IMG/VR virus record: IMGVR_UViG_2609459774_000005
Location: 1 to 13,997 of that record
DNA: 13,997 nt
Source of the DNA: a virus
Lineage: Duplodnaviria > Heunggongvirae > Uroviricota > Caudoviricetes
Reading direction: 5' to 3' (one strand)
Part shown: positions 1 through 13,997 of the stretch, one piece after another
Layout of the letters: each line of letters begins with the position of its first letter
How positions within the stretch are numbered: position 1 is the first letter of the stretch
Position numbers and translations under genes: made by a program
Notes under the pieces: generated by a model
Told to the model about the DNA's origin: nothing
Seen by the model: the letters and a program-made list of their open reading frames with translations, nothing else
The model's database searches: none

Positions 1-1314
1 CTAACCCACTGATTTTAATAAGTCTCTTGTGTCACTTTGGTGACCATGGGACATCATTGGGACATAATCTGCCAGCTTCTGATTCAGCATTGCGATCTGT
101 TCTGCATTACTGTCAGTCATCCATGCTCCGTATACATTGAATACCATCTGGGCACTTGCATGGCCCATCTGGCTGGCAATGAAGCTTGGGTTTGCTCCGG
201 CAGATAATGACCAGCACGCATAAGTGTGTCGTGACTGGTATGCTTTCCGGTGCCTGATGCCCGCACGCTTAACGGCTGTTTCCCATGAGTCGCCAATAGA
301 ATCTACCTTGTAGATAAAACCGACCTGTTTGCTTTTTCTAACCACCTGGGGGTTAAATACGAAAGTACATTCATGATTCACTGAGCGCCCATATTCACGT
401 AGTTGAACCTTGATGTGGTGCTGCTTACCCAGTCTTGTCATTTCAGCCTGATTTTTCAGGACACTGATAGCGGGCTGGATAAGATGCACAACCCTGTTTG
501 TACTTGCTTCAGTTTTAGGTAGAGTGAACTCACTGAGTTTCGTATAATTGCGCCTGATAGTAATAGTTCCTGCTTTCAGATCGATATCTTCCCAGGCCAG
601 GGAGACCAGTTCACCGTGACGCATTCCTGTGTACACAGCCAATGACCACAGGTTTTTCGTCTGCTGATGTCGGCAAGCATCTATCAGGCGAATAAATTCG
701 TCACGAGTTAGCGGATCTGGCTCTGCCCTGGCTCTTTTAAGAGGCTTAATTCCCTGGAAGGGATTTGCTTCTAAGTAACCGTGATCTGCAGCAAACTGAA
801 ACATTCCAGCGATAGTTGTCATGTAATAATTTACAGTAACGACGCTCCGTCCTTTTGCTGCTGCTTTGTTTTTCGTTGAATTCTGATACCCAGTCAGTAA
901 ATCTTTCCTGATATACAGCAATTCCTCTTTGGTTACCGATGACACCAGTCTGCTGCCTCCAATTTTCGGAACCATCGTTCTTGCAACGGATTCATAGCGA
1001 TTGAATGCATTTGCAGAGATTTCCATTCGTTTCAGATCCAGCCACTTTTCTTCAAGTTCCTTCACCGTAATTTCTTTTTTACTTACCCCAAAAGCCTGAA
1101 GGTTGGGGGAGTCAGGGAACTGTGCAGCATAATCAAAGCTTCCTGTGCGGATGGCAAAACATACCGATGTCCTCAGTTCCCCGGCGATCTTCCTGTTCTT
1201 GGCAGTGTCAGGGACACCAAGATTTTCCCTGACACGTTTACCTTTAAAATTAAACCAGATGCGTAATGTGCCGCCGTGGTTTTCGACGCCTGTTGGATAT
1301 TTGACTTTATCCAT
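1..1314 (-). CDS. int: Tyrosine recombinase / phage integrase (437 aa)
   Basis: Complete ORF whose stop codon is the first three bases of the window. The C-terminal region has the H-x-x-R box (SRHTYA) and a downstream Tyr (NVYGAWM) typical of tyrosine recombinases. Its position and orientation directly downstream of an excisionase-like gene fit an integration module. Confidence 0.9.
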   Translation of the reverse strand: MDKVKYPTGVENHGGTLRIWFNFKGKRVRENLGVPDTAKNRKIAGELRTSVCFAIRTGSFDYAAQFPDSPNLQAFGVSKKEITVKELEEKWLDLKRMEISANAFNRYESVARTMVPKIGGSRLVSSVTKEELLYIRKDLLTGYQNSTKNKAAAKGRSVVTVNYYMTTIAGMFQFAADHGYLEANPFQGIKPLKRARAEPDPLTRDEFIRLIDACRHQQTKNLWSLAVYTGMRHGELVSLAWEDIDLKAGTITIRRNYTKLSEFTLPKTEASTNRVVHLIQPAISVLKNQAEMTRLGKQHHIKVQLREYGRSVNHECTFVFNPQVVRKSKQVGFIYKVDSIGDSWETAVKRAGIRHRKAYQSRHTYACWSLSAGANPSFIASQMGHASAQMVFNVYGAWMTDSNAEQIAMLNQKLADYVPMMSHGHQSDTRDLLKSVG

Positions 1315-1369
1315 TGATACCTCCAGACGCCCAAGAGCGATACGAGCTTACATATTTCATGATATTAAA

Positions 1370-1606
1370 TCACCTGGGTTGTTTGTTTTTCATTGAGGCG
1401 ACCCAGGCATCTATTGCTTTTCTGTTATACATACATTCACTGGAAGGCTTTGGATTACCGTCTGGTGATACGTGAATATACTCTCTTCCAACCATCCAGC
1501 ATTCTTTCCGGGCCCGAAGAATTGTGCCTGGTTTGAGCCCGGTAATTGCGATAAGAACGCTTTCACAAACCCATTCATTGGGAGCCAGTTGAATCACATT
1601 GCCCAT
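1370..1606 (-). CDS. xis: Excisionase (lambda Xis-like, 78 aa)
   Basis: Small basic protein immediately upstream of int on the same strand. The segment ILRARKECWMVGREYIHV resembles the lambda Xis region ending in DGREYLFH. Confidence 0.7.
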   Translation of the reverse strand: MGNVIQLAPNEWVCESVLIAITGLKPGTILRARKECWMVGREYIHVSPDGNPKPSSECMYNRKAIDAWVASMKNKQPR

Positions 1607-1764
1607 GCATTACCTCACACAACACTCAGCCCACGGCAGTGGCACCACACTTCAAACATTCGTTTCACAATTTCACGACAGTAGAAGCCGTCAACATCTC
1701 GCGTCAGGTCATAGCGATTGCCGTAACGCTGGCGCACCCATAGCTCAAACGCTTTATTCATTCT

Positions 1765-2007
1765 TTACTTCCTTTTCATGGCCCGTAATTTTTTCAGATG
1801 AGCTTCCTGCTCTGTTTCTGCCAGAATTTGTCGGTATTCCTGGTGATCAATCCGTTCAAACAGTTCATTGAAATCGTTTATTTTTACTGACTGTGTTCGC
1901 CCATCAATTCTTCTGTACAACACAGTGTTGTTTATGCAGCGAATAATTATTACCGGGTAACCGGCACTGTCGGTATACAGTTGTCCCTGATTAATCAAAG
2001 CGAACAT
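1765..2007 (-). CDS. Hypothetical protein (80 aa)
   Basis: The ORF-track reading frame is trimmed to the internal ATG at 2007, which is preceded by AGGAGA. The longer start would overlap the upstream gene by about 90 nt. Confidence 0.5.
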   Translation of the reverse strand: MFALINQGQLYTDSAGYPVIIIRCINNTVLYRRIDGRTQSVKINDFNELFERIDHQEYRQILAETEQEAHLKKLRAMKRK

Positions 2008-2038
2008 TTTTTCTCCTGCTCTCTGAATAGTGAGAACT

Positions 2039-2410
2039 TCAGAGCCGTATGTTTGTAGCGGGTTCAATACTGATAATTTCTGCTGAGATAAGCATCCCGG
2101 CAAGCCAGAGTTCTCCGGACAGGTCTTCATCCTGACATATCAGTTCGCCAATATTAATGGTGGCCATGATATCTGTTTCCCCTGTACGCTCATCCTCGAC
2201 TTCTTCATAAGGCAGTGTTGCGTACAGGCTTTCAATAGCGCAACTGATAACATCGAGTCCGGTCAGGTTGCCACCAACAGTGACTTCGAATGTTTCGCGG
2301 TATTCCCATTGCCCGAAAGTTAATCGAATGGTTTGTTTCGCCATGCGTCCGCATGACGTCAGATTTGGGTCATAGTTCATTATTTGCGGTTGAGTATTAT
2401 GAGTGTTCAT
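2039..2410 (-). CDS. Hypothetical acidic protein (123 aa)
   Basis: Intact ORF in the leftward operon with no motif I recognise. Confidence 0.5.
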   Translation of the reverse strand: MNTHNTQPQIMNYDPNLTSCGRMAKQTIRLTFGQWEYRETFEVTVGGNLTGLDVISCAIESLYATLPYEEVEDERTGETDIMATINIGELICQDEDLSGELWLAGMLISAEIISIEPATNIRL

Positions 2411-2451
2411 CTGCTTTTCCCTTAGCCCGACGGCCTGCCGGGCATATTAAG

Positions 2452-3279
2452 TTATTTAACCTGGATAAATGGTGTATTGGCACCGCTGGTCATGTATTGC
2501 GGCAGCGTGCCGTTCCATTTATTGATGGCTTCCAGCTCCATAACACCGGGGTTCTGACGCAGAGCTTCACCGCGTAAACGAATAGCATCGGCTTCAGCCT
2601 GGGCTTTTGTGCGAATCGCATCAGCCTGTCCGGCAGCTTCCGCGCGCAACATGTTGGCTTCCGCTTCGCGCTGTTTTACTTCCTGCTCGCGTTGCAGAGT
2701 TTTCTGGTTCGCCGTGACTTTGGCATTAATGCTGTCGATAACAGTAGGCGGGTACTCCGGCTTACCCACATATGAGAGGCTTATTACCTGAATACCGATG
2801 GGCGTCATTTCTTCCTGAATGTCTTTAAGAGCTGCATCCAGCAGCTCAGGCTTGCCGCCGTCGATAAATTTGTCGGTGGTCATTTTGCTGGTCAGTCGGT
2901 TGAGTGCGTCGGCTATCTTCTGGCGCAGGTCGGTGTCGGTAATGTCGTCCACGCCTTTGCGGTAGGTCTGAAAGACTGTGGTAACTTTGGATGGATCAAC
3001 CTTGTAGGCTACTCCGATGTGGTAACCAATGGTTGTTCCATCGCTCATCTGGAAACTGAATGGATCATCGTAGGTCTTCATCTGCTTAAAGGTCGGGAAG
3101 ATATAAACTTCAGTGTTCCAGCCTGTCCAGTAGCGACCAACACCGACCACTTCACCGACGCCTTTGTCGTCGCCAAGTTTGTTGACTTTGATGCCCACAT
3201 TACCAGGCTCAACACGATCACAACCGACAAGGCCAATGGCAGGCAGAACAATGGCTAAAGAAAAAATAATTTTTTTCAT
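2452..3279 (-). CDS. SPFH / band-7 (prohibitin-flotillin-like) lipoprotein (275 aa)
   Basis: N-terminal signal peptide with lipobox LVGC (MKKIIFSLAIVLPAIGLVGC). The central region has SPFH-like character and the C-terminus is an Ala/Glu/Arg/Gln-rich coiled coil (QREQEVKQREAEANMLRAEAAGQADAIRTKAQAEADAIRLRGEALRQ), as in band-7 proteins. The start codon overlaps the stop of the upstream membrane ORF (ATGA) and is preceded by AAGGAT. Confidence 0.85.
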   Translation of the reverse strand: MKKIIFSLAIVLPAIGLVGCDRVEPGNVGIKVNKLGDDKGVGEVVGVGRYWTGWNTEVYIFPTFKQMKTYDDPFSFQMSDGTTIGYHIGVAYKVDPSKVTTVFQTYRKGVDDITDTDLRQKIADALNRLTSKMTTDKFIDGGKPELLDAALKDIQEEMTPIGIQVISLSYVGKPEYPPTVIDSINAKVTANQKTLQREQEVKQREAEANMLRAEAAGQADAIRTKAQAEADAIRLRGEALRQNPGVMELEAINKWNGTLPQYMTSGANTPFIQVK

Positions 3280-3464
3280 CTTTTATCCTTAGTGAAAGAA
3301 AGCCCCTTATAAATGGTATAAATACATGGCGGGGTTAGAAACGTCAGTGCAAAGCCAGAAATCACCGCTACCGTATCCTTCATTGATATCAGAAACGGGA
3401 CGAGCAATCCGTAAATACATGCGATAATTGCCAGTGATATAACTATTCTGAAATAAATGTTCAT
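3276..3464 (-). CDS. Small two-helix membrane protein (62 aa), candidate NfeD-like partner of the SPFH protein
   Basis: Two hydrophobic stretches (IVISLAIIACIYGLLVPFLI and VAVISGFALTFLTPPCIYTIY). Strong RBS (GGAGG) before the ATG; stop overlaps the SPFH start. Confidence 0.6.
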   Translation of the reverse strand: MNIYFRIVISLAIIACIYGLLVPFLISMKDTVAVISGFALTFLTPPCIYTIYKGLSFTKDKR

Positions 3465-3524
3465 GGTCCTCCTGCTGTATTCAGCTTGCCTTATTTAATT
3501 GCGTCATGGTTAATTTCGTTTACG

Positions 3525-3917
3525 TCAGAATGGTTTTGTTGCCATCAGTTCGTAATATCCGGCGCTCCATGTGTCATATTTTCTGAACCATTTTTCTGTA
3601 TACTGTTTCCTGGCGATGAGTCTGCGCAGTCGTCTGATTGTTCGCTGGTGTGCGCGGGTGTACTCTGTGGTTGATTCTCCACGTTTCCATATTTCATTCC
3701 CGTTGAAGATAAAACGCTTGTCAGGATGGCGTTGTCGGAATCCTGAACGTTCAAAAGCGCGGGTGGTCATAAAGAATGCCAGGTAACGAATTGCCGTTTT
3801 TCGAGTGAGGCATTTTTTTGTTCTTCCGTGATGTGTTACAAAAAATAACGGGCCGACGGGTGTATCATGTTTCTGTAATGCCTGGTCAATGGCGCTGGCG
3901 GTGCGGTTGTCGATCAT
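3525..3917 (-). CDS. Hypothetical basic protein (130 aa)
   Basis: Intact ORF whose start overlaps the stop of the upstream gene (ATGA). Arg/Lys-rich C-terminus. Confidence 0.5.
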   Translation of the reverse strand: MIDNRTASAIDQALQKHDTPVGPLFFVTHHGRTKKCLTRKTAIRYLAFFMTTRAFERSGFRQRHPDKRFIFNGNEIWKRGESTTEYTRAHQRTIRRLRRLIARKQYTEKWFRKYDTWSAGYYELMATKPF

Positions 3918-4132
3918 TTCTTTATTTCTCCCGAATAACGTTCATGACTCATTATTTCCCAGTTCCGGCCGTCGTCTTTCGATAACAGCCGCCAGCGACG
4001 GTTAACCTTCAGACTGAGATATCCGTTGCGCTGTATCCGATGCGGGAATATACGTCGGCATCTGTACCGCCGCAGGACCAGCAACGCCTGCTGGTGGACC
4101 CACTCAGGAATTCGCGTTGCTGTTAATGTCAC
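3914..4132 (-). CDS. Hypothetical basic protein (72 aa), apparent GTG start
   Basis: The ORF track starts at a GTG at 4132 that is preceded by AGGAGG at a 6 nt spacing. It overlaps the upstream gene by 29 nt. The protein is Arg-rich, so the call is uncertain. Confidence 0.4.
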   Translation of the reverse strand: MTLTATRIPEWVHQQALLVLRRYRCRRIFPHRIQRNGYLSLKVNRRWRLLSKDDGRNWEIMSHERYSGEIKK

Positions 4133-4319
4133 TGGTTTCCTCCTGAGCAGGTGCTGTTATCTGATACCCCGCTCTTTCTGCCAGCCATATGAATGTATCC
4201 ATGCTGGCAATCAGCTCTCCATCGCGGACTTTGCAGACATCTGTTACCTGGCCATTTTCAATTGTCATAACGATCTGCACTTTTTCGTGCACAACAGATA
4301 CAGGGGATAAATTAGCCAT
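4104..4319 (-). CDS. Hypothetical protein (71 aa)
   Basis: Intact ORF whose ATG overlaps the stop of the upstream gene by 1 nt (TGATG). Confidence 0.45.
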   Translation of the reverse strand: MANLSPVSVVHEKVQIVMTIENGQVTDVCKVRDGELIASMDTFIWLAERAGYQITAPAQEETSDINSNANS

Positions 4320-4678
4320 CAGTTAATTCCTCCGCTGATATATTTTTCTTTCGCGTAATCAATAACCTCTTGTAAAAGGTTGTCTATAATTAACTTTCCG
4401 GTTTCAGCCTGGTATTCAGTATGTTGATTAATCCCGATGGCATTCTGGTATGCAGTTCGGAATTCTGTTTCACCCTCCACTCGACCCAATTCACCACGGG
4501 TAATATCTTCAAAGCGCAACAGCAACTGGTTTATAAACTGTTCTGTTATTTCTATGGTCGTAATGTTCCCATCCAGAAGGTCAACAATAAGCAGATCACC
4601 ACCTGTTTTACGTTTTATTCGATGGAGTGCTGCAACAGCTATACGGCGACGATATGTATTAATGGGTTCATGTGTCAT
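4319..4678 (-). CDS. Hypothetical protein (119 aa), first gene of a four-gene coupled cluster
   Basis: Intact ORF downstream of a 195 bp intergenic region (4679-4873). Confidence 0.5.
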   Translation of the reverse strand: MTHEPINTYRRRIAVAALHRIKRKTGGDLLIVDLLDGNITTIEITEQFINQLLLRFEDITRGELGRVEGETEFRTAYQNAIGINQHTEYQAETGKLIIDNLLQEVIDYAKEKYISGGIN

Positions 4679-4873
4679 TTGTTATTTCCCGTATGCTTTA
4701 CGCAGAAATAAGCAGGCAATATGTATGTAATTTTCACCGTATTGTGCAATAAGACAGGCGGTCTTGTGTGATGCCATATTCTTTATAAAAGTCATAATAA
4801 ATCCTCCTGTGGATTAAGATTGTAACAATCCCCGGCGATAAAACCGCAATAAACGTTCAGAGCATATTTGTTG

Positions 4874-5239
4874 TTATTGCGCTAATTCTTTTTCGGCAGC
4901 AGTTTTTGCATACTCACATGCAAAATTCAGAATTTCGCTGCCGAGTGTTTTCGTTTCGTGATTACTGGACATATGTAATACCTGTGTTGCATGCAATAAA
5001 TGATAAACATTTACCGCAAATGAATCAGGCTCCAGACAAATGCCTTCGTAATTATCTTGCTGTGAGGTTGTTTCTGTCATTGCTTCTGAAGTGCATGCGA
5101 GCCTGTTTTTGACAATTCTCTTTCCTCTAATCACTATATCGGCAACATCTATTGCCTTTACAACCTCCGGGAGAAGTTCCGGGTTTGTATAATCAAAGTC
5201 ATCAACATGGAGAACAGTTATGTTTTCGAACTTTTTCAT
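4874..5239 (-). CDS. Hypothetical protein (121 aa) in an AT-rich island
   Basis: Intact ORF with AGGA before the ATG. Visibly AT-rich codon usage compared with neighbouring genes. Confidence 0.5.
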   Translation of the reverse strand: MKKFENITVLHVDDFDYTNPELLPEVVKAIDVADIVIRGKRIVKNRLACTSEAMTETTSQQDNYEGICLEPDSFAVNVYHLLHATQVLHMSSNHETKTLGSEILNFACEYAKTAAEKELAQ

Positions 5240-5418
5240 GGCTTCCTCAGCTGACTTATATGTCCTGCTATATAGCGAGTCTCAGAAGTGTTTTCATATT
5301 GAGACTGTTTCCGCAATGATTGATAATCAGTTACCGGATGCTTATCCGTGTCCGGCGCACGACCACACGTAGCCGCGTGTTGGTCCCCATTTTCAATTCA
5401 GCTCTCAATGGAGGATAA

Positions 5419-5646
5419 ATGATTAACGCAGAGCAACTCGAAAAAGAGATTTCAGAACTCAAAAAAGAATTAATTTGGCACAAAGTTGCTATCTCCGCAT
5501 TAATTCGTCAGGTAGTTTCACCTGAAGATAAAGTAAAGTTTATGAAGCAGTTCTCATCTTCATCAAAGGAGTTTTTCACTGACGAGGTTCATCCAGAGGC
5601 TGGATTTTGGATCCGTCAATTATTTTCGCAAGATAAGCGTAAATAG
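5419..5646 (+). CDS. Hypothetical small protein (75 aa), possible coiled coil
   Basis: Strong RBS (GGAGG, 5 nt spacer) before the ATG. The N-terminus (EQLEKEISELKKELIWHKVAISALIRQ) looks heptad-like. Its 3' end overlaps the convergent gene 5576-5818 by 71 nt. Confidence 0.4.
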   Translation: MINAEQLEKEISELKKELIWHKVAISALIRQVVSPEDKVKFMKQFSSSSKEFFTDEVHPEAGFWIRQLFSQDKRK

Positions 5647-5818
5647 CGTCATCAATACTCGCGTCGCTCTTGAATTTAAGAGCGATGCTCTTTATATCCT
5701 CTGAAATTATTACCAGATCACCATATGTTATATTTTTATTATTGCGCGCAGTGCTTTTTTGTATGAAATCAAGCAATTCACCAATGAGACAAATATGGTA
5801 AGCATTACAGTTTTTCAT
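5576..5818 (-). CDS. Hypothetical protein (80 aa), translationally coupled to the upstream HTH-domain gene
   Basis: Trimmed to the internal ATG at 5818, which overlaps the stop of the 5815-6276 gene (ATGA). AT-rich. Confidence 0.5.
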   Translation of the reverse strand: MKNCNAYHICLIGELLDFIQKSTARNNKNITYGDLVIISEDIKSIALKFKSDASIDDAIYAYLAKIIDGSKIQPLDEPRQ

Positions 5819-6276
5819 GCGCAGATATCCTTTGCTGCCGTTTCGCCAGTTAACAGCCACATCGCATCGCAGCCAAGAATATTTGCCAGTGGGATAAGCA
5901 TACTGATAGTTGGTTCATACTCTCCGCTCTCCCACTGGATGATAATTTCTTCATCGAGATCGAGCAGCCTGGCGAGTTCGGCGGTTGTTAAGCCGCAGGC
6001 TTCGCGTTGGGTGCGAAGGTTAACCAGCCAGCTTTCAGGGAAGGATTGTTTTTGTTGCGCAGGAGAAGCAGCAGATAGAGCATATTCATGGATAAATTCC
6101 ATTACCTCAATGCCCAGTTCCTTTGAGCGAGCACAATCCAGAAGATGGAATGTGCGTACAGCACTTAGCAAATTTGCAATATTTAATGCAAAGGAATCAA
6201 GTTCTAAGCCCTTAAGCGTAACACAGCCGCAGTTGATAAAATTAGTTGTTTCTGGAGTTGCTTTTAGTGTCTTCAT
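5815..6276 (-). CDS. Two-domain protein (153 aa): unknown N-terminal domain plus C-terminal XRE/Cro-type helix-turn-helix
   Basis: The C-terminal segment LRTQREACGLTTAELARLLDLDEEIIIQWESGEYEPTISMLIPLANILGCDAMWLL matches the XRE-family HTH pattern. Start set at the ATG at 6276, which has GGTGGA upstream. Confidence 0.65.
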   Translation of the reverse strand: MKTLKATPETTNFINCGCVTLKGLELDSFALNIANLLSAVRTFHLLDCARSKELGIEVMEFIHEYALSAASPAQQKQSFPESWLVNLRTQREACGLTTAELARLLDLDEEIIIQWESGEYEPTISMLIPLANILGCDAMWLLTGETAAKDICA

Positions 6277-6324
6277 ATATCCACCAACAATTTTAAATTG
6301 AATCAAATCAAGTTATAATTGATG

Positions 6325-6358
6325 GTGCGATATTATGTTTTGGGAAATAGCCTGTCAA
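6325..6358 (-). promoter_or_regulatory. Candidate sigma70 promoter for the HTH-protein/partner operon
   Basis: On the minus strand, a perfect TTGACA (6358-6353) is followed about 16-17 nt later by an ATAATA/TAATAT -10-like hexamer. It lies between the cI terminator and the HTH gene start. Confidence 0.45.
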
Positions 6359-6388
6359 GAAAAAATTGATATCGTATATTTCAGGCAG

Positions 6389-6409
6389 AAAAAAAACGGG
6401 CAAAGCCCG
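6389..6409 (-). terminator. Intrinsic terminator directly downstream of the repressor gene
   Basis: On the minus strand, hairpin CGGGC-TTT-GCCCG is followed by a run of eight T, 14 nt after the cI stop. Confidence 0.6.
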
Positions 6410-6422
6410 TTAGAATCAAAGA

Positions 6423-7112
6423 CTAACCAAATCTGTTTATGTTGAATGGTACTGATGAGATCACTTTAGACTGGATATAAAGCAGAGCTAACCCCTCTTT
6501 TTCGATGCTCCATGGTTGATAATTGGGGTTATCAGATAACACCATGATTTTGCTTCCAATTTTTTGAAGCCTTTTCACGTAGCATTCTCCATCAAAACAA
6601 AATGCATAAATACCATCGCCATCAAAATAAGTTACTGTCTTATCAAGAAAAAGAAGGTCGCCAGGTGAGATTGTGGGAGCCATACTGTCTCCTCTGGCGT
6701 TACCTATTTCTATATTTTTGAATGCCCGATTTCCAACAAGACGTCGGGCATATTCAGGATCAAGTTCTATTGAGCGCACTACATCTATCAAGTCACCACG
6801 GACATGAGTTCCATCACCGCAACTAAACTCAACATCAAGGACATTAAACACGACGCTATCTGTTCTTGTCTGGTGTTTCTCTTGCGAGGAAAAGGTTGGT
6901 GAGGAGTCTTCACCTAAGAACCAGGATTGTGGATAACCGCTAATCTCTGATAAATGCGCGAGCTTATCACTCCGTGGAAATGTTTTTCCTGTTGTCCAGT
7001 ACTGCACTGATTGCGCACTCACACCTAACTTGCGGGCCAGTTGAGCCTGAGTCCATCCTTTTGCTTTCAGCATCGCGGCTATTCGATTTTCCGTGTTTTT
7101 GACGTTCTTCAT
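6423..7112 (-). CDS. cI: CI-like phage repressor (HTH plus LexA/S24 peptidase domain, 229 aa)
   Basis: N-terminal HTH (TQAQLARKLGVSAQSVQYWTTGKTFP) and C-terminal S24-like region with the GDSM motif (NARGDSMAPTISPGD) and a downstream Lys (CYVKRL). Divergent from a Cro-like gene. Start trimmed to the ATG at 7112; the track's start at 7118 is a TTG. Confidence 0.9.
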   Translation of the reverse strand: MKNVKNTENRIAAMLKAKGWTQAQLARKLGVSAQSVQYWTTGKTFPRSDKLAHLSEISGYPQSWFLGEDSSPTFSSQEKHQTRTDSVVFNVLDVEFSCGDGTHVRGDLIDVVRSIELDPEYARRLVGNRAFKNIEIGNARGDSMAPTISPGDLLFLDKTVTYFDGDGIYAFCFDGECYVKRLQKIGSKIMVLSDNPNYQPWSIEKEGLALLYIQSKVISSVPFNINRFG

Positions 7113-7245
7113 GACCAAATCCTGTGGGTTTCTTTACAAGGATAAATCTTTACTTGATTTTAGTGTATTCGATCCTTTTGTAACTTGCATGTTAATTTAA
7201 ACTTGATGTATTCTTGATTTATAAAGTTAATATTGGTGCTTTGTT
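7113..7245. promoter_or_regulatory. Divergent immunity-region promoter/operator segment between the cI-like and Cro-like genes
   Basis: AT-rich intergenic region with repeated CTTGAT-containing motifs (ACTTGATTTTAG, ACTTGATGTAT, TCTTGATTTAT) and an imperfect inverted repeat TTACAAGGAT ... ATCCTTTTGTAA. Exact -35/-10 hexamers could not be assigned. Confidence 0.5.
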
Positions 7246-7536
7246 ATGGAAGGAAATGATTACGACAAACTTCGTGCATTAATTGCGCAAAATGCCATAG
7301 CGCGAAATCTTGGTGTGACGCCGCAAGCGGTGAATCAGTGGTTTTCAAAAAGCACAATTCCTGCTCGTTTCGTTTTACGAGTATGTGAAGTAGTTGCATG
7401 GAAGGTTACGCCTCATGGCTTAAGGCCAGATCTTTATCCTCACCCTGAAGATGGAATTCCTAACTTGTTACGCAAAAGCCTAAATCCAAGTTCACCACAC
7501 AGAGCGGATGGAATACACGCAGGAGATAAACAATGA
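7246..7536 (+). CDS. cro: Cro-like / YdaS-family transcriptional regulator (96 aa)
   Basis: Segment LGVTPQAVNQWFSKSTIPARFVLRVCEVVAWKVTPHGLRPDLYP fits the YdaS/Cro-like family pattern. First rightward gene, divergent from cI. Confidence 0.75.
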   Translation: MEGNDYDKLRALIAQNAIARNLGVTPQAVNQWFSKSTIPARFVLRVCEVVAWKVTPHGLRPDLYPHPEDGIPNLLRKSLNPSSPHRADGIHAGDKQ

Positions 7537-8240
7537 ACATCGCAATTTTTAACGGCAAAGTATCCATGACCAGCGTTGAAATTGCAGAGCTGGTGGGTAA
7601 ACGTCATGACAATGTGAAACGCACTATTGAAACATTAGCCAAAGGTGGCGTTGTCCGGTCTCCTCAAATTGAGGTTTCCGAAAGAATCAATAACTTAGGT
7701 TTTAAAGTTCAATATGAGCATTACCTGTTTGAAGGAGAACAAGGTAAGCGCGACAGCATCATTGTCGTCGCACAGCTCTGTCCTGAATTCACTGCTCGCC
7801 TGGTAGATCGCTGGCGCGAACTGGAAGAACAGATCCGTAAGCCAATGAGCGAAATCGAAATGGTTGCCGCGATGGCTCTTGAAGCAGTTCGTCAGCAGAA
7901 ACGGATCACTCAGGTGGAAGAAAAAGTCAGCCACGTTGCTGAAACAGTCGAGCAAATTAAAAAGGGCACTATTCGTGAGGGCTATGCCGGATATCGCCAA
8001 CTGAAAGCAAAAACCGGTTTGTCAGATGATAAATGCCGCAATCTGGTGAACGCCTATCAGATTCCTACAGACACCCATGAGTTCATGACGCCGGACGGAT
8101 TGTTGTCACGTCGAGCAATTGTTGCTGTGGAACCGTTTATGGCTGCTTTTTATCGGGTTATGGAGGAAGCAGAACCGCGAGGGACTCGCTGGTATCACCC
8201 GAAAATGGGGTTATTTCAGGTTATTGGTTGGCAGCGGTGA
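7533..8240 (+). CDS. Rha-family phage regulatory protein (235 aa)
   Basis: N-terminus (GKVSMTSVEIAELVGKRHDNVKRTIETL) matches the Rha-domain signature. The start overlaps the cro stop (ATGA). Confidence 0.8.
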   Translation: MNIAIFNGKVSMTSVEIAELVGKRHDNVKRTIETLAKGGVVRSPQIEVSERINNLGFKVQYEHYLFEGEQGKRDSIIVVAQLCPEFTARLVDRWRELEEQIRKPMSEIEMVAAMALEAVRQQKRITQVEEKVSHVAETVEQIKKGTIREGYAGYRQLKAKTGLSDDKCRNLVNAYQIPTDTHEFMTPDGLLSRRAIVAVEPFMAAFYRVMEEAEPRGTRWYHPKMGLFQVIGWQR

Positions 8241-8264
8241 AAAAAAAGCCGGGAGTAACCCGGC
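8240..8264 (-). terminator. Hairpin with T-run on the minus strand (A-run on the plus strand) immediately after the Rha gene
   Basis: Plus strand reads eight A then GCCGGG-agtaa-CCCGGC with no downstream T-run. In the minus orientation it is a canonical intrinsic terminator; for plus-strand transcripts it lacks the U-tract. Confidence 0.5.
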
Positions 8265-8371
8265 TCACTCAACATCAATAACGGGGAGCTGTTTCGCATA
8301 AAACGGTTCCGAAACATCCAAGAACAGTTCTAAAGATATCAGCAGCTATATGATCATTTCAAGACCAAATA

Positions 8372-8483
8372 TTGATTCTGCAATTTCGGGACGTTACACT
8401 GTCTCCGCACCTTATAAAGCGGGTGCCGGGGGTCGCAGCCCGGAATTGCATACGGCGATATACGACGCGCCAGCGTCTTTTTT
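8372..8483 (+). ncRNA. Candidate leader or small RNA unit: promoter, two hairpins and an intrinsic terminator
   Basis: TTGATT (8372-8377), 17 nt spacer, TACACT (8395-8400). Downstream hairpins GCACC/GGTGC (8407-8426) and CCGGG/CCCGG (8426-8443), then terminator GACGC-gcca-GCGTC followed by six T (8464-8483). Predicted transcript about 75-80 nt. Not verified by folding. Confidence 0.3.
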
Positions 8484-8649
8484 ATCGTCCGCGCTCACGC
8501 ACGCCAGAATTATGGTGGGCTGGGCAGGGGAGCCGAAAGGCTCGCCGGTTTCCGTATGCGCCGGTACTGCGAACCCTGTTCAGTCTGCCACCAGTGAGTT
8601 TCGCAGCTCCGGTGGTGGAAGTTATCCATTGCATACGGAGGCTGCCATC

Positions 8650-9012
8650 ATGGCTACAGTCCCAACTTCCCCATACCTGAAAATTGAAGTTGTCAACGGC
8701 AAGGCCGTTATTTTCTCCCTGCATGTTGCCTGCCACTTTAAGCGCATGCACCAGAACATCGTCGACAAAATCGAGTATCTGAACTGCTCACGCGAGTTTT
8801 TTACCCGCAATTTCATACCGGGTACTTATCACATCTACGGTGACTCCCTGCGTGGTTATTACATCACCCTTGATGGCCTGATGATGCTTCAGCTTGGGTT
8901 AAGTCTGCGCACAATGCGGTACTACGAGAGCTGCATTGAAGCATTCCATGAGGCAGAGAACAGCCTGAATCTTACCGCTTTCTGCTGTAATCAATGGGAG
9001 GTGCGCCCATGA
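8650..9012 (+). CDS. Hypothetical protein (120 aa), first gene of the replication operon
   Basis: Start assigned to the ATG at 8650, preceded by GGAGG at 8637-8641. The upstream 100 in-frame codons are low-complexity Ala/Gly/Ser/Pro-rich and are treated as noncoding. Confidence 0.5.
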   Translation: MATVPTSPYLKIEVVNGKAVIFSLHVACHFKRMHQNIVDKIEYLNCSREFFTRNFIPGTYHIYGDSLRGYYITLDGLMMLQLGLSLRTMRYYESCIEAFHEAENSLNLTAFCCNQWEVRP

Positions 9013-9233
9013 TTCGCCGCGTCGTTAATTCCCTGTATCACCGATACAACCGTTGCCCCCGTGTGGGGCAGTGGTTCGCCACCAGCAACGGTCACGTTCT
9101 GCGGGTTTGCCTAGTCAACGCTGAAAGCCAGAAAGTCGTGTGCGAACTACAGGGGCGTAGCTACACCATCAGTTACCCTCTGGCGGTATTTCTGTCTGGA
9201 AAAATGTTTAAGCGTCTGGGAGGTGTGGCGTGA
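9009..9233 (+). CDS. Hypothetical Cys-containing small protein (74 aa)
   Basis: ATG at 9009 preceded by GGGAGGTG and overlapping the upstream stop. Confidence 0.5.
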   Translation: MIRRVVNSLYHRYNRCPRVGQWFATSNGHVLRVCLVNAESQKVVCELQGRSYTISYPLAVFLSGKMFKRLGGVA

Positions 9234-9529
9234 ACTGTTTTCAGTTTGTGTGCGGATGTGCTTTCGATAACCCGATTCAGCGCCTGATTATGTTGCGTGT
9301 TTTGATGTCGGGTTCTTCAGACGGTGAAGGCGAGAGAGTTATTGATCATCAGGTGCTTGCTGATTTCTGCTGTTGTTCTAAGCAAGCGATATTCAGGGAA
9401 ACCCTGGCACTGGAAAGAGCTGGTTATCTTCATATCCAAAAAATTGCAACGCTTACTATTGATGCAAAAGCCAGACTACAACCTGCGCGTGGCTACACAA
9501 TTCTCATGCCGCGGAAGGAGGTTGTATGA
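9230..9529 (+). CDS. Hypothetical protein (99 aa), GTG start, possible winged-helix DNA-binding protein
   Basis: GTG at 9230 preceded by GGAGGTG (6 nt spacer) and overlapping the upstream stop (GTGA). The winged-helix guess rests only on the segment SKQAIFRETLALERAGYL. Confidence 0.45.
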   Translation: MNCFQFVCGCAFDNPIQRLIMLRVLMSGSSDGEGERVIDHQVLADFCCCSKQAIFRETLALERAGYLHIQKIATLTIDAKARLQPARGYTILMPRKEVV

Positions 9530-10518
9530 GCCGTTACGCCCCCACACCGGAAGTTATGGCTATTGGTCAAATTAATATTTCCGGCAATGTTACACCTGCG
9601 AACTGGTGGAAATATATTCGACTACCCAGTGGGCGTCCGGATGCGACGGCTATCGCTCTGCTTTCAGAGATCGTTTACTGGTACCGCCCGACAGAGGTCA
9701 GGGATGAGCACACCGGAGCGTTGCTGGGATATCGCAAGCGTTTTCAGGGCGACAAACTGCAAAGAAGCTACCAGGCGTTTGCTGAGCAGTTTGGTTTCGG
9801 GAAAAGGGAAACCGCAGATGCGCTGAAGCGTCTGCGCGATGCAGGGTTTATTACTCTGGATTTACGCACGGTGGAAATGCTCGATGGGGTGAAATGCAGC
9901 AATATTTTGTTTGTCGGGATCAACCCACAGGCAATTGCGGCCATCACCACACCTTCTTCTGTTTCGCCAGAAAGTAACAGCAATAATGCAATCAGCGATA
10001 CAGCTATTACGTTAAAACGGAACACCCCCCGACGTCATAACGGAACAGGGGATACGCCGAATGTTGATACAAATACAGAGATTACTACAGAGATTACAAC
10101 GGAGACTAAAAACACTATTGATGCATCCGCTGACGCGTCTGCGCCAGCGCGTTCTGCCCGACAGGAATATTCACCGGAATTTGAACAGGCCTGGCAGGAA
10201 TATCCCAAACGTGCTGGTGGCAATTCCAAGTCAGCAGCCTTCAAAGCCTGGAAAGCCCGTATCAGGGAGGGAATAAAACCGGAGACCATGCTTGATGGCG
10301 TGAAGCGGTATGCCGCCTGGGTACGTGCTACAGGAAATACCGGCACACAGTTCGTGAAGCAGGCTGCGACGTTCTTTGGACCCGATCGTCACTTCGAAGA
10401 TTACTGGCAACAGCCAGCCGCTCACGGAGGTGGGCGACAGCGACAGGTCGATGTCCTGGCTGGCCTGGGAGCCATGTCTGACAAATTCGGTAAATCCAGT
10501 AACAAATTGACATTCTGA
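9526..10518 (+). CDS. Phage replication initiation protein (O-like replisome organiser, 330 aa)
   Basis: N-terminal region resembles phage replisome-organiser domains. The central part is a low-complexity Thr/Glu-rich linker encoded by tandem DNA repeats. Conserved-looking C-terminal domain (EYSPEFEQAWQEYPKRAGG...FFGPDRHFEDYWQ). Start overlaps the upstream stop (ATGA). Confidence 0.75.
   Translation: MSRYAPTPEVMAIGQINISGNVTPANWWKYIRLPSGRPDATAIALLSEIVYWYRPTEVRDEHTGALLGYRKRFQGDKLQRSYQAFAEQFGFGKRETADALKRLRDAGFITLDLRTVEMLDGVKCSNILFVGINPQAIAAITTPSSVSPESNSNNAISDTAITLKRNTPRRHNGTGDTPNVDTNTEITTEITTETKNTIDASADASAPARSARQEYSPEFEQAWQEYPKRAGGNSKSAAFKAWKARIREGIKPETMLDGVKRYAAWVRATGNTGTQFVKQAATFFGPDRHFEDYWQQPAAHGGGRQRQVDVLAGLGAMSDKFGKSSNKLTF
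10075..10110 (+). repeat. Tandem 12 bp iteron-like direct repeats inside the replication initiator gene (candidate origin)
   Basis: ACAGAGATTACT (10075-10086), ACAGAGATTACA (10087-10098) and a degenerate ACGGAGACTAAA (10099-10110), followed by an A-rich stretch. They encode the TEITTEITTETK segment. Confidence 0.5.
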
Positions 10519-10519
10519 G

Positions 10520-10873
10520 GTGACAGCGATGATGACGATTGACCAACGTGAGAAACAAACAAGACTACAGGCGCGAATGGATGAGTTACGGGCAGAGATT
10601 GCATTTGCTCAGAATGGCGAAAAGCCATGGCCTTACCGTGCCTGTCGGGAATCTGAAGGGGTTGGATGCTGCGAAAAACACGGTAAATATCGTACGCATA
10701 TACTGGTGTGGGATGATCGGCAGGGGGGCGCTGTCTCAAAAATTTCCCGCTGTCGGGAGCATCACAACGAGCTTCATGCGGATCCGCTGGTATTCGAAGA
10801 AAAGCATGGTTCCCAGGTTGATTTAATTTTTCATTTTCTTGATCACGCCTTTGCAACCGGCGTGCTTGGGTAA
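10520..10873 (+). CDS. Hypothetical Cys/His-rich protein (117 aa), nin-region-like
   Basis: RBS GAGGTGA before the ATG. Clustered Cys/His residues (CRESEGVGCCEKHGKYRTH ... CREHHNELH) suggest metal binding; no definite family assigned. Confidence 0.5.
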   Translation: MTAMMTIDQREKQTRLQARMDELRAEIAFAQNGEKPWPYRACRESEGVGCCEKHGKYRTHILVWDDRQGGAVSKISRCREHHNELHADPLVFEEKHGSQVDLIFHFLDHAFATGVLG

Positions 10874-10885
10874 AAGAGGTTACTG

Positions 10886-11245
10886 ATGCGTATAGAGTTT
10901 GTTTTGCCTTATCCGCCAACGGTGAACACCTACTGGCGACGTCGTGACAACACATATTTTGTATCAAAAGCCGGTGAGCGTTATCGCCGGGATGTGGCGC
11001 TAATTGTTCGCGAGCAGCGGCTGAAATTAAACCTGTCCGGACGGCTGGCGATAAAGGTGATTGCAGAGCCACCGGATAAGCGCCGTCGTGACCTGGACAA
11101 TATTCTGAAAGCACCACTGGATGCACTGACACATGCGGGGTTGCTTATCGACGACGAGCAGTTTGATGAAATCAATATTGTGCGCGGACTGCCTGTTCCT
11201 GGTGGTCGGTTGGGGATAAAAATCACAGAGCTGGAGTGCGCATGA
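10886..11245 (+). CDS. rusA: RusA-family Holliday junction resolvase (119 aa)
   Basis: N-terminal LPYPPTVNTYWRRR and central RRRDLDNILKAPLDALTHAGLLIDD match the RusA pattern (LPWPPSNN...RRRDLDN...KA.FDAL). Typical nin-region position. Confidence 0.9.
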   Translation: MRIEFVLPYPPTVNTYWRRRDNTYFVSKAGERYRRDVALIVREQRLKLNLSGRLAIKVIAEPPDKRRRDLDNILKAPLDALTHAGLLIDDEQFDEINIVRGLPVPGGRLGIKITELECA

Positions 11246-11931
11246 ATAACCAGTATTTACAGTTTGTTCGTGAGCAGCTCATTATCGCCACCGCCGATTT
11301 GAGTGGGGCAACAAAAGGTCAGCTTGAAGCCTGGCAGGAGAATGCCATGTTTGATACAGGACGTTACAGACGTAAAAAAATCCGGTACCGCGATAAGGTC
11401 ACTGGAAAAATGGTAACGCTGGATAATCCACCGATCCCGGGAAAGCAATCGCTGGCGAAAGGTTCATCAATTGCCCTGGTCAGTCCGGTTGAGTTTTCGA
11501 CATCATCATGGCGACGCGCCGTTCTGTCTCTTGAAGAGCATCAGAAGGCGTGGGTGCTGTGGGTATACAGTGAAAATCCGAGTTGGGATTATCAGGTGGT
11601 CATTGCGAAATGGGCGTGGGATAAGTTTCAGGTGCATTTTGGCACCAGAAAAATTACAGGGAAAACGCTTGAGCGTCTGAAGAAATTAATCTGGCTGGCG
11701 GCGCAGGATGTCAGGGGGAGGATTACTGGGCGTGACGTCTACCAGCGACAGGAACTTGCCAGACTGTGTGGAGTTAAGCCTGACAACTGGAGCCATAATT
11801 ATGCGAACTACTGGCGTGAGATGTGCGACATTTTTAAGAAACTCGATACAGAATCCTTGATTTGCACCGTGAAAATGAGATCGCAACAAAAAGCGACCTT
11901 TTCACGACGAGATATTGCAAAAGTCAATTAA
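11242..11931 (+). CDS. Putative late-gene antiterminator (Q-like), 229 aa
   Basis: Call is by position only: last gene of the rightward early operon, immediately after rusA and immediately before a strong intrinsic terminator. No Q motif was verified. Start set at the ATG at 11242, overlapping the rusA stop (ATGA). Confidence 0.55.
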   Translation: MNNQYLQFVREQLIIATADLSGATKGQLEAWQENAMFDTGRYRRKKIRYRDKVTGKMVTLDNPPIPGKQSLAKGSSIALVSPVEFSTSSWRRAVLSLEEHQKAWVLWVYSENPSWDYQVVIAKWAWDKFQVHFGTRKITGKTLERLKKLIWLAAQDVRGRITGRDVYQRQELARLCGVKPDNWSHNYANYWREMCDIFKKLDTESLICTVKMRSQQKATFSRRDIAKVN

Positions 11932-11977
11932 ATCGCATACATTTTATGTAAATGTGATATTTTGCCGTATAGTGTGT

Positions 11978-12002
11978 AAACCCGCTTAAATGCGGGTTTT
12001 TT
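11978..12002 (+). terminator. Strong intrinsic terminator downstream of the Q-like gene
   Basis: AAACCCGC-ttaaat-GCGGGTTT followed by a T-run (11997-12002), 47 nt after the Q-like stop codon. Confidence 0.75.
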
Positions 12003-12032
12003 GCTTAACTCTGTGGACCTTTTTATCTGTAG

Positions 12033-12057
12033 TTGTAAGATATGGATATTCTTACAA
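12033..12057. promoter_or_regulatory. Perfect 8 bp inverted repeat (TTGTAAGA, 9 nt spacer, TCTTACAA) upstream of the kinase gene
   Basis: Palindrome at 12033-12057 between the terminator and the kinase start codon. Candidate operator or 5'-UTR hairpin. Confidence 0.4.
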
Positions 12058-12075
12058 TTTAGGTCGGTGAGCTTA

Positions 12076-12840
12076 ATGGAAGAACAGCACGGTAATTACT
12101 TTATAAAACGAATTCAGTTGATTGGAAGGGGTGCATTTGGCTTTGTTGAACACGTTAAGGTTTACAACCTCAACAAGGGTGAATGTGGGGATTATGCTAG
12201 AAAGGTTTTAGCCCCCGAAAAACCAGAGCTTTTGGCGCAAATAGAGCAGTTTAGAAGGCGTTTTAAAAGGGAGGTCGTGTATCAATCACATTGCGTACAT
12301 AGCAATATTGTTCCTATTTATTTGTGCGATTTGTTTGCCGAGAATCCATGGTTCATTATGGATAAAGCAGAATGTGATCTTGAGCACGAAATAACGAACA
12401 ACCTTCTTACAACAGATCAAAAAATTTCAATAGTGAAAATGGTATTAGATGGTGTAGCTCACATCCATGCGAAAGGCTATTTACACAGAGATATAAAACC
12501 ATTTAATGTCTTGCGATTTAGCGACGGAACATACAAGGTGTCTGATTTTGGTCTGGTAAAAGATACAAATCCCGAAGGGGATACCACTAAATTGACCGAG
12601 ATCGGTACCCGTATGGGAAGTACAAGATATATGGCTCCCGAGATTTTATATAATGCCGAGTATTCAGTTAAGACTGATGTTTATGCGGTGGGGCGGTTAA
12701 TTGAGGACTTAAATTTAGATGATAAAAAAATAAAGCCTATCATAGCGAAGTGTACCAGGATGGATAAAGATGATAGATATCAGACAATAGATGATGTGGC
12801 GTTTGATTTTGTGCATTCTTTTTTAAGGAGTGAGTCATGA
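12076..12840 (+). CDS. Hanks-type (eukaryotic-like) Ser/Thr protein kinase (254 aa)
   Basis: Catalytic signatures present in the canonical order: Gly-rich loop IGRGAFGFV, invariant Lys in YARKVL, alpha-C Glu in FKREV, catalytic loop LHRDIKPFN, SDFG, YMAPE, and DVYAVG. Start trimmed to the ATG at 12076. Visibly AT-rich. Confidence 0.9.
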   Translation: MEEQHGNYFIKRIQLIGRGAFGFVEHVKVYNLNKGECGDYARKVLAPEKPELLAQIEQFRRRFKREVVYQSHCVHSNIVPIYLCDLFAENPWFIMDKAECDLEHEITNNLLTTDQKISIVKMVLDGVAHIHAKGYLHRDIKPFNVLRFSDGTYKVSDFGLVKDTNPEGDTTKLTEIGTRMGSTRYMAPEILYNAEYSVKTDVYAVGRLIEDLNLDDKKIKPIIAKCTRMDKDDRYQTIDDVAFDFVHSFLRSES

Positions 12841-13580
12841 TTCAGCTGATAGCGACTTCATCATTCTCGTATCCAAAAGAACCAGGTAGGGTCAACGAAG
12901 ATTCATTGCTTCCTCCCAAAATTGTAGGGGATGGCATCTTATTTGCCGTAGCTGATGGTGTAGGTTCATACACTGGTGCCAGTCAGGCTTCATCAATGGC
13001 AATTGCTGAACTTTCAGCATTGACAAGCTTATCTTTTGACACAGTTCCGGATGTATTTGATGAAGTTAAGCGAAAGGTTATGTCGTTAGCTGATGTTAAT
13101 GATGAGTTCGATAAAGCTGCTACTACACTTACGTTTTGTTATGTTTGTGATAGCGGAATTATTATTGGTCATATTGGTGATTGTCGTTTGTATTGCATTG
13201 GAGAGAAGAAAGCATACCAATTGACGAAGGACGATACCAGGCATCAGATGCTAATTGATCAGAATATTTTTAAACCCAGAGATTTGAAGGATAAACCGGG
13301 CAAAAATATCTTAACGACGGCTATAGCCTCAAATGTTGATATGGAATACGACTGTGATTTTATCACATGGAAAGATTTACCTAGTATTAACGGGGTATAT
13401 CATCTGTGTATCATGTCTGATGGGGTTCATAACGTTTGGGAAAAACGCCCCAGATTTACATCAAATACGATGAGTAATAGTCAGAAGTTTTCTAATGGCA
13501 TTTTGCGTCGTATAGAGAGAGCCGGACCTGATGATGACTTTTCTTTAGTAAGTATAATGGTGCGTGTGACGTCAGATTAG
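12837..13580 (+). CDS. PP2C-family (PPM) Ser/Thr phosphatase (247 aa)
   Basis: PPM motifs present: VNEDS near the N-terminus, FAVADGVG (DGxGG-type metal-binding motif), IGDCRLY (GDSR-type), MSDGVHN and C-terminal GPDDDFS. The start overlaps the kinase stop (ATGA), indicating translational coupling. Confidence 0.85.
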   Translation: MIQLIATSSFSYPKEPGRVNEDSLLPPKIVGDGILFAVADGVGSYTGASQASSMAIAELSALTSLSFDTVPDVFDEVKRKVMSLADVNDEFDKAATTLTFCYVCDSGIIIGHIGDCRLYCIGEKKAYQLTKDDTRHQMLIDQNIFKPRDLKDKPGKNILTTAIASNVDMEYDCDFITWKDLPSINGVYHLCIMSDGVHNVWEKRPRFTSNTMSNSQKFSNGILRRIERAGPDDDFSLVSIMVRVTSD

Positions 13581-13650
13581 TTGTATAAACTCAGTAGGGA
13601 ATGCTAATTTCACATACAACATAGTTAAAGAAAACTTAATTTTAATGTAA

Positions 13651-13677
13651 AAAGGCTGCCCTCAGGCGGTCTTTTTA
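13651..13677. terminator. Bidirectional-looking intrinsic terminator after the phosphatase gene
   Basis: AAA-GGCTGCC-ctca-GGCGGTC-TTTTT: a 7 bp stem including two G-U wobble pairs, flanked by an A-run upstream and a T-run downstream. Confidence 0.55.
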
Positions 13678-13799
13678 TGCTCGAAAATTGATGCAGTACG
13701 TTAAACGCGCTGGTGGTTGCGAATACCGGTCTTTCAGCTTGCTGGCTTTTTAGACAAGAGTTATTGGTATGTCACGTTAACCAGAAAAGGGAAAAAGGC

Positions 13800-13997
13800 A
13801 TGCTAAAACAGCTGGATATGACCGAAACCGCCAGAGTGGTGTTTAATGAATTAAGCGTCACCGAACCGGCGACCGTCGGGGAAATTGCGCAGAATACTTA
13901 CCTTTCACGCGAACGCTGCCAGTTAATACTGACTCAGCTTGTTATGGCGGGTCTGGCAGATTATCAGTTCGGTTGTTACAGACGCCTTCCGCAGTGA
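13800..13997 (+). CDS. Small PapI/FaeA-like winged-helix regulator (65 aa)
   Basis: Start trimmed to the ATG at 13800, preceded by a purine-rich RBS. The segment EPATVGEIAQNTYLSRERCQLILTQLVMAGL resembles the PapI/FaeA family core. The stop codon is the last three bases of the window. Confidence 0.45.
   Translation: MLKQLDMTETARVVFNELSVTEPATVGEIAQNTYLSRERCQLILTQLVMAGLADYQFGCYRRLPQ

Follow-up and report, generated by a model that had tools for sequence, protein, structure and literature searches.

The antisense-RNA immunity mechanism of phages has been known since the work on the P1/P7 c4 RNA (1990), on the P4 CI RNA (1990s) and on IsrK of Gifsy-1 (2016). Here we analyze the gap that follows the Rha gene in a 13,997-nucleotide (nt) stretch of a Caudoviricetes genome (IMG/VR record IMGVR_UViG_2609459774_000005, positions 1 to 13,997, hereafter the window), and we are highly confident that this gap is an IsrK-C4 phage antisense-RNA immunity cassette of the P4/P1 type. 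The cassette is a member of the well-described families of P1, P7, P4 and Gifsy-1, and the finding as such is already known. A preliminary description of the sequence had proposed a riboregulatory leader built on three copies of an octamer; it correctly placed the region upstream of the replication operon (replication initiation genes at 9230-10518), but it set the start of the gap at 8265, whereas the gap after the Rha gene begins at 8241.

The passages of PMC3632133 that deal with these RNAs equate IsrK and C4 with the seqA and CI RNAs of P4 and state that lambdoid prophages carry such systems. The P4 immunity sections of PMC10111431 add that the Rfam C4 and isrK profiles detect relatives of CI and seqA. 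According to the same sections, a constitutive promoter lies inside the P4 eta gene, its transcript is terminated through CI/seqA interactions and processed to CI, and read-through yields Kil as a truncated translation product; synthesis of full-length Eta requires an upstream promoter, and termination does not take place when Eta is translated (Forti et al. 1999, in PMC10111431). In P1 and P7, c4 blocks a ribosome-binding site (RBS) and sets heteroimmunity between the two phages (PMC12197685). In Gifsy-1, the mutant pairs G28A/C162U and G31A/C159U switch the transcript between translationally inactive and active forms, and both the binding of Hfq and the trans activation of downstream translation by IsrK come from experiments in that prophage (PMC4825925).

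When the window was scanned with Rfam, using the gathering scores as thresholds, both RNAs of these systems were found in the gap. The isrK model (RF01394) matched over its full length of 77 nt with 57.0 bits (gathering score 50), and the C4 antisense RNA model (RF01695) matched downstream of it at model positions 1-87 of 87 with 80.4 bits (gathering score 45); coordinates are given in Table 1. The 75-80 nt transcript that had been predicted would correspond to the 77-nt isrK match. When the C4 segment was folded by itself, its minimum free energy (MFE) structure was exactly that of the family (z = -3.9), with a long outer stem around a tetraloop hairpin and a second hairpin with a large loop. 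The fold of IsrK has two hairpins on the 5' side, which are the two GC hairpins noted previously, followed by the intrinsic terminator that had been called from the sequence, and a terminator scan recovered both the hairpin (8464-8477) and the T run of the latter.

The octamer GCATACGG is found at 8448-8455 and 8631-8638 on the plus strand and at 8552-8559 and 4689-4696 on the minus strand of the window. Only 0.34 copies are expected in the whole window, and four copies were reached in 0 of 200 shuffles. The triad in the gap, which lies where the preliminary description had put it, is real and non-random. Its inverted copy (a') sits in the exposed 12-nt loop of C4 hairpin 2, while one direct copy (a1) is in a single-stranded part of IsrK and the other (a2) is on the RBS of the gene at 8650. 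This last copy overlaps the GGAGG at 8637-8641, 8 nt 5' of the ATG at 8650, and the 9-base-pair complementarity proposed between GCATACGGA (8631-8639) and TCCGTATGC (8551-8559) is exact. By eye and by search we also found a second triad; the earlier account had the octamer sites right but missed these. CUGCGAA (b', 8567-8573), in an unpaired junction of C4, is complementary to UUCGCAG (b2, 8600-8606) and to UCGCAG (b1, 8433-8438), the latter within IsrK. Read from the sequence, the two triads make up the classic a1b1 / a'b' / a2b2 layout of the P1/P7 c4 RNA. In the MFE fold of the read-through RNA (8407-8665), b1-a1 is paired with a'-b', which by analogy corresponds to the inactive "structure A" of Gifsy-1 (PMC4825925).

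The fourth octamer copy (4689-4696, minus strand) lies 10 nt 5' of the ATG of a minus-strand early-left open reading frame (ORF, 4319-4678) and could pair with the a' loop, so it was considered as a trans target of C4 and rejected for lack of covariation. The site is unchanged in three relatives (L017, L010 and L020) although their a' loops differ, and it is mutated in another (L048) although the a' there is the same as in the window. It is probably not a C4 target.

Evidence for RNA pairing comes from relatives. The conserved stem of C4 hairpin 2 was used as the query for a scan of viral contigs, and among the matches listed there are at least 120 loci with at least 30 different a' loops and at least 41 a'/b' combinations. 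Base pairs were counted in an unfitted MAFFT alignment of 38 representatives, which included the window, P4 and the P1-like contigs L007 and L055, and the controls were slid partners and 500 shuffles. For the structure made of C4, a':a2 and b':b2, 95.0% of cells were paired (34-47% with slid partners) and the covariation score was 0.563 (about 0.1 with slid partners). For the structure made of a1:a' and b1:b', the values were 94.0% (32-54%) and 0.792 (about 0.13). The observed paired fraction and covariation score were reached in none of the 500 shuffles for either structure. Inside C4, the outer stem was 95.6% paired with 11 covarying pairs, and hairpin 1 was 100% paired with covariation at 5 of 5 pairs. 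All four of the intermolecular helices covary: a':a2 was 86.7% paired with both-side changes in 8 of 9 pairs, b':b2 was 96.9% paired (6 of 7), the a1:a' helices were 88-93% paired (8 of 8), and b1:b' was 99.1% paired (5 of 6). The proposal that the inverted copy pairs with the RBS copy and that the upstream copy competes for it is thus supported by covariation, and also by homology to c4, CI and IsrK (PMC4825925; PMC12197685). The family membership, the RNA structures and the four complementarities with their covariation are direct observations on this locus and its relatives.

In 40 specificity classes among the matches listed, the reverse complement of the a' loop occurs at fixed offsets of about +54 nt (a2, usually ending in the GGA of the RBS) and about -96 nt (a1), and the reverse complement of b' occurs at +23 nt and about -112 nt. 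The match is to the locus's own loop: the mean match length with the own loop was 8.2 nt downstream and 6.75 nt upstream, compared with 5.0 and 5.1 nt for loops of other loci. The a' loop of the window, CCGTATGCG, is found among these matches with at least four different b' sequences (TACGCC, ACTGCG, AGTTCC and AGTGCA), and a' and b' elements therefore reassort independently of each other.

We noted that some prophages have tandem IsrK-C4-Rha cassettes about 1.3 kb apart with different a'/b' specificities (L016 at 9289-11266 on the minus strand, and the long ORF of L026). In L016 the two specificities are CCTTGATCG/ACTGCG and CCGTATGCG/AGTTCC. This suggests that tandem cassettes are stacked RNA immunities of different specificity.

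Table 1. Cassette features in the window, with their positions and the basis for or role of each.
Feature	Position	Strand	Description
Internal promoter	8372-8400	+	putative; -35 TTGATT 8372-8377, 17-nt spacer, -10 TACACT 8395-8400; equivalent of P4 PLE and of the Gifsy-1 isrK promoter
IsrK / P4 seqA-type leader small RNA, 77 nt	8407-8483	+	two 5' hairpins, single-stranded a1, terminator 8464-8483; from Rfam, fold and terminator scan
b1 UCGCAG	8433-8438	+	loop and 3' side of IsrK hairpin 2; complementary to b'; the G28/G31 region of Gifsy-1 IsrK
a1 GCAUACGG	8448-8455	+	first direct octamer; complementary to the a' loop
C4 / P4 CI-type antisense RNA	8508-8595	+	long outer stem around two hairpins; from Rfam, fold and covariation
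a' UCCGUAUGC	8551-8559	+	inverted octamer in the 12-nt loop (8549-8560) of C4 hairpin 2
b' CUGCGAA	8567-8573	+	single-stranded junction between C4 hairpin 2 and the outer stem
b2 UUCGCAG	8600-8606	+	downstream target of b'
a2 GCAUACGGA	8631-8639 (with Shine-Dalgarno to 8641)	+	overlaps the Shine-Dalgarno GGAGG (8637-8641) of ATG 8650
First gene under putative C4 control	8650-9012	+	120-amino-acid Rha-like regulator, antirepressor-like; position of P4 kil, P1 icd and Gifsy-1 anrP
Long ORF, P4 eta-like	8350-9012	+	in frame with the 8650 gene, start 5' of the internal promoter; annotated "ash family protein"

The P4 immunity region is the closest match in organization. It has isrK and C4 Rfam matches in the same order, with C4 at 8420-8507 on the minus strand and isrK on the leader upstream, and the position of the C4 match is that of the P4 CI RNA if the equivalence given in the literature is accepted (PMC3632133). 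The promoter, b1/a1, terminator, C4, b2, a2 and the start context GGAGGCUGCCAUCAUGGCUAC of the window and P4 all align. P4 also has a long ORF that begins 5' of the internal promoter and is in frame with a short ORF at the a2 RBS, and a match to the Pfam family Phage_ASH falls on the corresponding segment. The differences are that the window is a lambdoid prophage while P4 is a satellite, that the position of kil is occupied by a 120-amino-acid Rha-like protein instead of the 65-amino-acid Kil, that the spacer from leader to C4 is 84 nt shorter in the window (118 vs 202 nt from b1 to a'), that the a'/b' specificity is not the same, and that the ATG of the long ORF in the window is uncoupled from the upstream gene.

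Gifsy-1 is likewise a lambdoid prophage, and its isrK-orf45(STnc1160)-anrP region has both RNAs in the order and orientation of the window, with an antirepressor-like gene behind them; there the C4 match lies over orf45 and the reported STnc1160 RNA, with anrP next. The b1:b' helix is shared, and in Gifsy-1 it was verified by compensatory mutants (PMC4825925). Nucleotides 26-32 of the Gifsy-1 IsrK (UUGGCGU) are b1 and nucleotides 158-164 (ACGCCAA) are b', and since the compensatory positions fall in b1 and b', the mutant pairs are base pairs of this helix. Their equivalents in the window are G8435:C8570 and G8438:C8567. C4 has an AUG at its 5' end (8512 in the window), and in Gifsy-1 this is the first AUG of orf45. 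In contrast to the window, where the cassette is in the early right operon between rha and the replication genes, the Gifsy-1 cassette has the Q antiterminator gene before it and isrJ behind it. In addition, orf45 ends in a TGA that overlaps the ATG of anrP (ATGA; L124 34210-34073), while the window has no stop codon there.

The immI region of P1 and P7 (c4, icd, ant1/2) shares the C4 structure, the a1b1/a'b'/a2b2 logic, an a2 on the RBS of the first ORF and a specificity that is set by the loops. P1-like leaders differ in having no T-run terminator, and therefore no IsrK-type end of a small RNA, and P1-like loci have no eta-like frame across the cassette (it is open only from -98 to +106) and have icd and ant as downstream genes. 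In the Hamiltonella phage APSE-8 (LR794148), isrK, C4 and putative a' and b' are annotated at equal relative positions, followed by a Bro-family (BRO-N) gene, although both host and phage are distant and the annotation is computational only.

By analogy with these systems, the cassette may work as follows. Transcription would start at about 8407 from the internal promoter, and most transcripts would end at the terminator to give an IsrK/seqA-type small RNA carrying b1 and a1. Transcripts that read through would include the C4/CI-type RNA, whose a'/b' would pair with a2 and b2 and so block translation of the Rha-like gene at 8650, and polarity would lower the expression of the replication genes downstream. 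The a1/b1 of IsrK would be a second, competing partner for C4, either in cis in the read-through transcript or in trans as a decoy, and the balance of IsrK and C4 would determine whether the RBS is free. Transcripts from an upstream early promoter would carry the ATG at 8350, which is absent from the internal-promoter transcript because it is 5' of the -35 hexamer at 8372, and translation through the cassette would permit escape from the RNA repressor, as with P4 eta. From P1, P4 and Gifsy-1, we infer the processing of C4, its action in trans, the translational block, Rho-dependent polarity, activation by IsrK and the override by translation.

Several points weigh against reading the gap as such a cassette. 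The Rfam c4-a1b1 model scored only 18.5 bits here, under its gathering score of 46.7. The promoter-like TTGATT-17-TACACT that had been pointed out is present, though its hexamers agree with the consensus at 8 of 12 positions and fall under the threshold of a generic scanner; they align with conserved TTGA.../TAnAnT columns of the 38 relatives, including P4 PLE, and 6 nt separate TACACT from the start of the isrK model. No Shine-Dalgarno sequence can be recognised for the ATG at 8350, which comes 110 nt after the Rha stop codon, and eta-like translation from it in this prophage is uncertain. The published models also differ from each other, as C4/CI of P1 and P4 represses through a2b2/seqC while IsrK of Gifsy-1 activates by refolding orf45, and our sequence fits either.

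The alternative that survives best is a purely cis-acting leader or attenuator, in which the RNA is not processed, the inverted octamer folds onto the RBS copy, the upstream copy is an anti-sequestor and there is no trans antisense RNA. All of the sites are on one transcript, the MFE fold of that transcript uses a1b1:a'b' in cis, and IsrK mutations had cis effects in Gifsy-1 (PMC4825925), as such a leader would predict. However, C4 is an independently stable and strongly covarying domain that displays a' and b' unpaired, as c4 and CI do, and relatives act in trans, with P1/P7 heteroimmunity (PMC12197685) and the processed, stable CI RNA of P4 (PMC10111431) as examples. A stable STnc1160 species is also found downstream of IsrK in Salmonella (PMC4825925), and the many a'/b' specificity classes are the expected product of trans-acting immunity between phages. 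On balance we find a leader that acts only in cis improbable. The core idea of a riboregulatory leader holds, but in the studied relatives the inverted copy is part of a processed trans-acting antisense RNA (C4/CI) and not merely of a leader that folds in cis. With this correction, the preliminary description essentially rediscovered the c4/CI antisense mechanism from sequence alone.

A second alternative is that the region is an ordinary coding sequence (CDS), the N-terminal "Ash domain" of a 220-amino-acid Ash-Rha protein, in which the octamers are incidental. The gap had been said to have no convincing coding potential, and this is inaccurate: the ORF at 8350-9012 crosses the entire cassette, continues in frame as the 8650 gene and is a RefSeq CDS that the Prokaryotic Genome Annotation Pipeline (PGAP) calls "ash family protein". 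Amino acids 16-108 match Phage_ASH (PF10554) with 60.4 bits against a cut-off of 26. Of 99 unique loci, 85 keep this frame open between -150 and +110 nt, compared with 4 and 18 for the two remaining frames, and the lengths of indels are multiples of three. The nested arrangement, with a long ORF through leader, C4 and target into a short ORF at the a2 RBS, is found in P4 and in most of 32 representative loci. In the group with the cassette-spanning frame, the b1-to-a' spacers of 115, 118, 127, 157, 163 and 202 nt (the last in P4) are all 1 mod 3, a spacing that is not kept in P1-like and more distant loci. These spacer lengths are alignment-based distances; the terminator T run, whose length varies, was discarded as an anchor. 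The reading frame through the cassette is genuinely maintained by selection.

Evidence for selection on the amino acids themselves is mixed. Among single-nucleotide codon variants, 43% were synonymous in the Ash part and 48% in the downstream CDS (Fisher p = 0.6), where about 26% is expected at random. This count conflicts in tone with the profile of variation by codon position, which is flat over 8407-8649 (0.081/0.086/0.089) while the downstream CDS has a third-position excess (0.075/0.075/0.145). Further points argue against the coding explanation. The ORF contains a putative promoter and an intrinsic terminator, and its variation is organized as compensatory RNA pairs. The Pfam match spans exactly IsrK, C4 and a2 (window 8395-8673), and in P4 the PF10554 match (L122 8330-8521) is on a superseded "cI gene product" ORF overlying the C4/CI RNA match, CI being an RNA repressor according to the P4 sections of PMC10111431. 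The part of PMC12197685 on Gifsy-1 reports its authors' statement that the nucleotide sequence of orf45 is conserved while its amino-acid sequence is variable. An open frame would be expected anyway from the P4 eta precedent, which is compatible with the RNA mechanism. We regard an ordinary coding sequence as very improbable. A conserved frame across 8350-8649, which the preliminary description had named as a refutation of its RNA proposal, is formally present, but the RNA mechanism is not refuted by it, as both coexist in P4 (PMC10111431).

The last alternative, that the octamers are operators or iteron-like sites for a DNA-binding protein, could account for direct and inverted repeats beside a regulator and replication genes, but the sites vary freely among relatives and yet remain complementary to the loop in a strand-specific way, by Watson-Crick or G-U pairs (the latter occur in P1-like loci, for example), which is the signature of RNA pairing and not of a protein site, there is no covarying protein partner, and with nothing in support of the protein-binding sites that had been offered as a second option, we give this explanation almost no credence.

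Returning to the antisense-RNA cassette, the near-invariant AUG at the 5' end of C4 (8512-8514) is replaced by TTG or CTG in two relatives. The window, P4 and most lambdoid relatives have it in frame with the downstream gene, with no stop codon. The first 100 positions of the phrog_995 profile coincide with the IsrK, C4 and target segment, as judged from the match of the 120-amino-acid gene to positions 101-221 only. Ash is listed as a domain of unknown function in the "Eru" phages that carry Shiga toxin (Stx). In one paper PF10554 serves as the profile of P4 epsilon, which would imply that epsilon is the founder of the Ash family; we rejected this, as epsilon matches PF25738 and not PF10554.

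The window is a lambdoid prophage with an integrase, a CI-like repressor (6423-7118, minus strand), a Cro-like gene (7246-7536) and Rha (7533-8240) before the cassette. After the cassette come the 120-amino-acid gene, the replication initiation genes, RusA, a Q-like antiterminator and a kinase-like gene. The product of the 120-amino-acid gene has matches to the Rha models TIGR02681 and PF09669, both below the cut-offs; it also matches phrog_995 (4e-56) and, less well, PHROGs of anti-repressors. Relatives differ in the gene that takes the controlled position, which may be Rha-like, Bro/ANT-like, Kil-like, Icd-like or DUF4222. Over a 460-bp segment (8241-8700), the window and a prophage of E. 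coli ATCC 43886 (L001, NZ_CP024256) are 100% identical, and 834 of 5426 complete E. coli genomes have matches to this segment, as do many Stx-converting and other lambdoid phages. Elsewhere the two are not collinear, with a 360-bp offset of the integrase and another ORF layout after 9000, and the window therefore comes from a mosaic relative of the ATCC 43886 prophage.

Two other features of the window were noted. On the minus strand between the Rha stop codon and the cassette (8236-8362), there is a promoter-like TTGAAA-18-TATCTT (8362-8333) that has an extended TG, and also a strong terminator (8266-8246) with a U8 run. Together these could give a leftward transcript of about 85 nt (fold z = -2.2), or the structure may simply be a bidirectional terminator. 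A minus-strand match to sroD at 8241-8301 had 24.5 bits against a gathering score of 50 and was treated as chance. Downstream of the Q-like antiterminator (11236-11931), the region 12001-13580 has a serine/threonine-kinase-like gene (phrog_2361, 5e-99) and then a phrog_5650 protein; this pair may be accessory or defence genes.

For this window, the finding is of value mainly as annotation. In the RefSeq record that we checked for the identical segment, the only annotation is the CDS "ash family protein", and neither of the two RNA genes nor the target sites are listed. More generally, a Pfam and PGAP "protein family" coincides with an RNA regulatory cassette. We tentatively propose, at slightly less than an even chance, that the "Ash domain" is not a protein domain but the product of translation reading through the IsrK-C4 cassette, that its frame is open only for ribosomes that arrive from an upstream promoter and override the RNA repressor, that the cassette is a second, RNA-based layer of immunity gating an antirepressor-like Rha and the replication genes in lambdoid prophages, and that the reassorting a'/b' loops are a combinatorial code of heteroimmunity. 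In this lambdoid prophage, an antirepressor-like regulator and the replication genes are probably what the segment controls, and the data are a compact demonstration that specificity loops co-evolve with their two sets of targets across many prophages.

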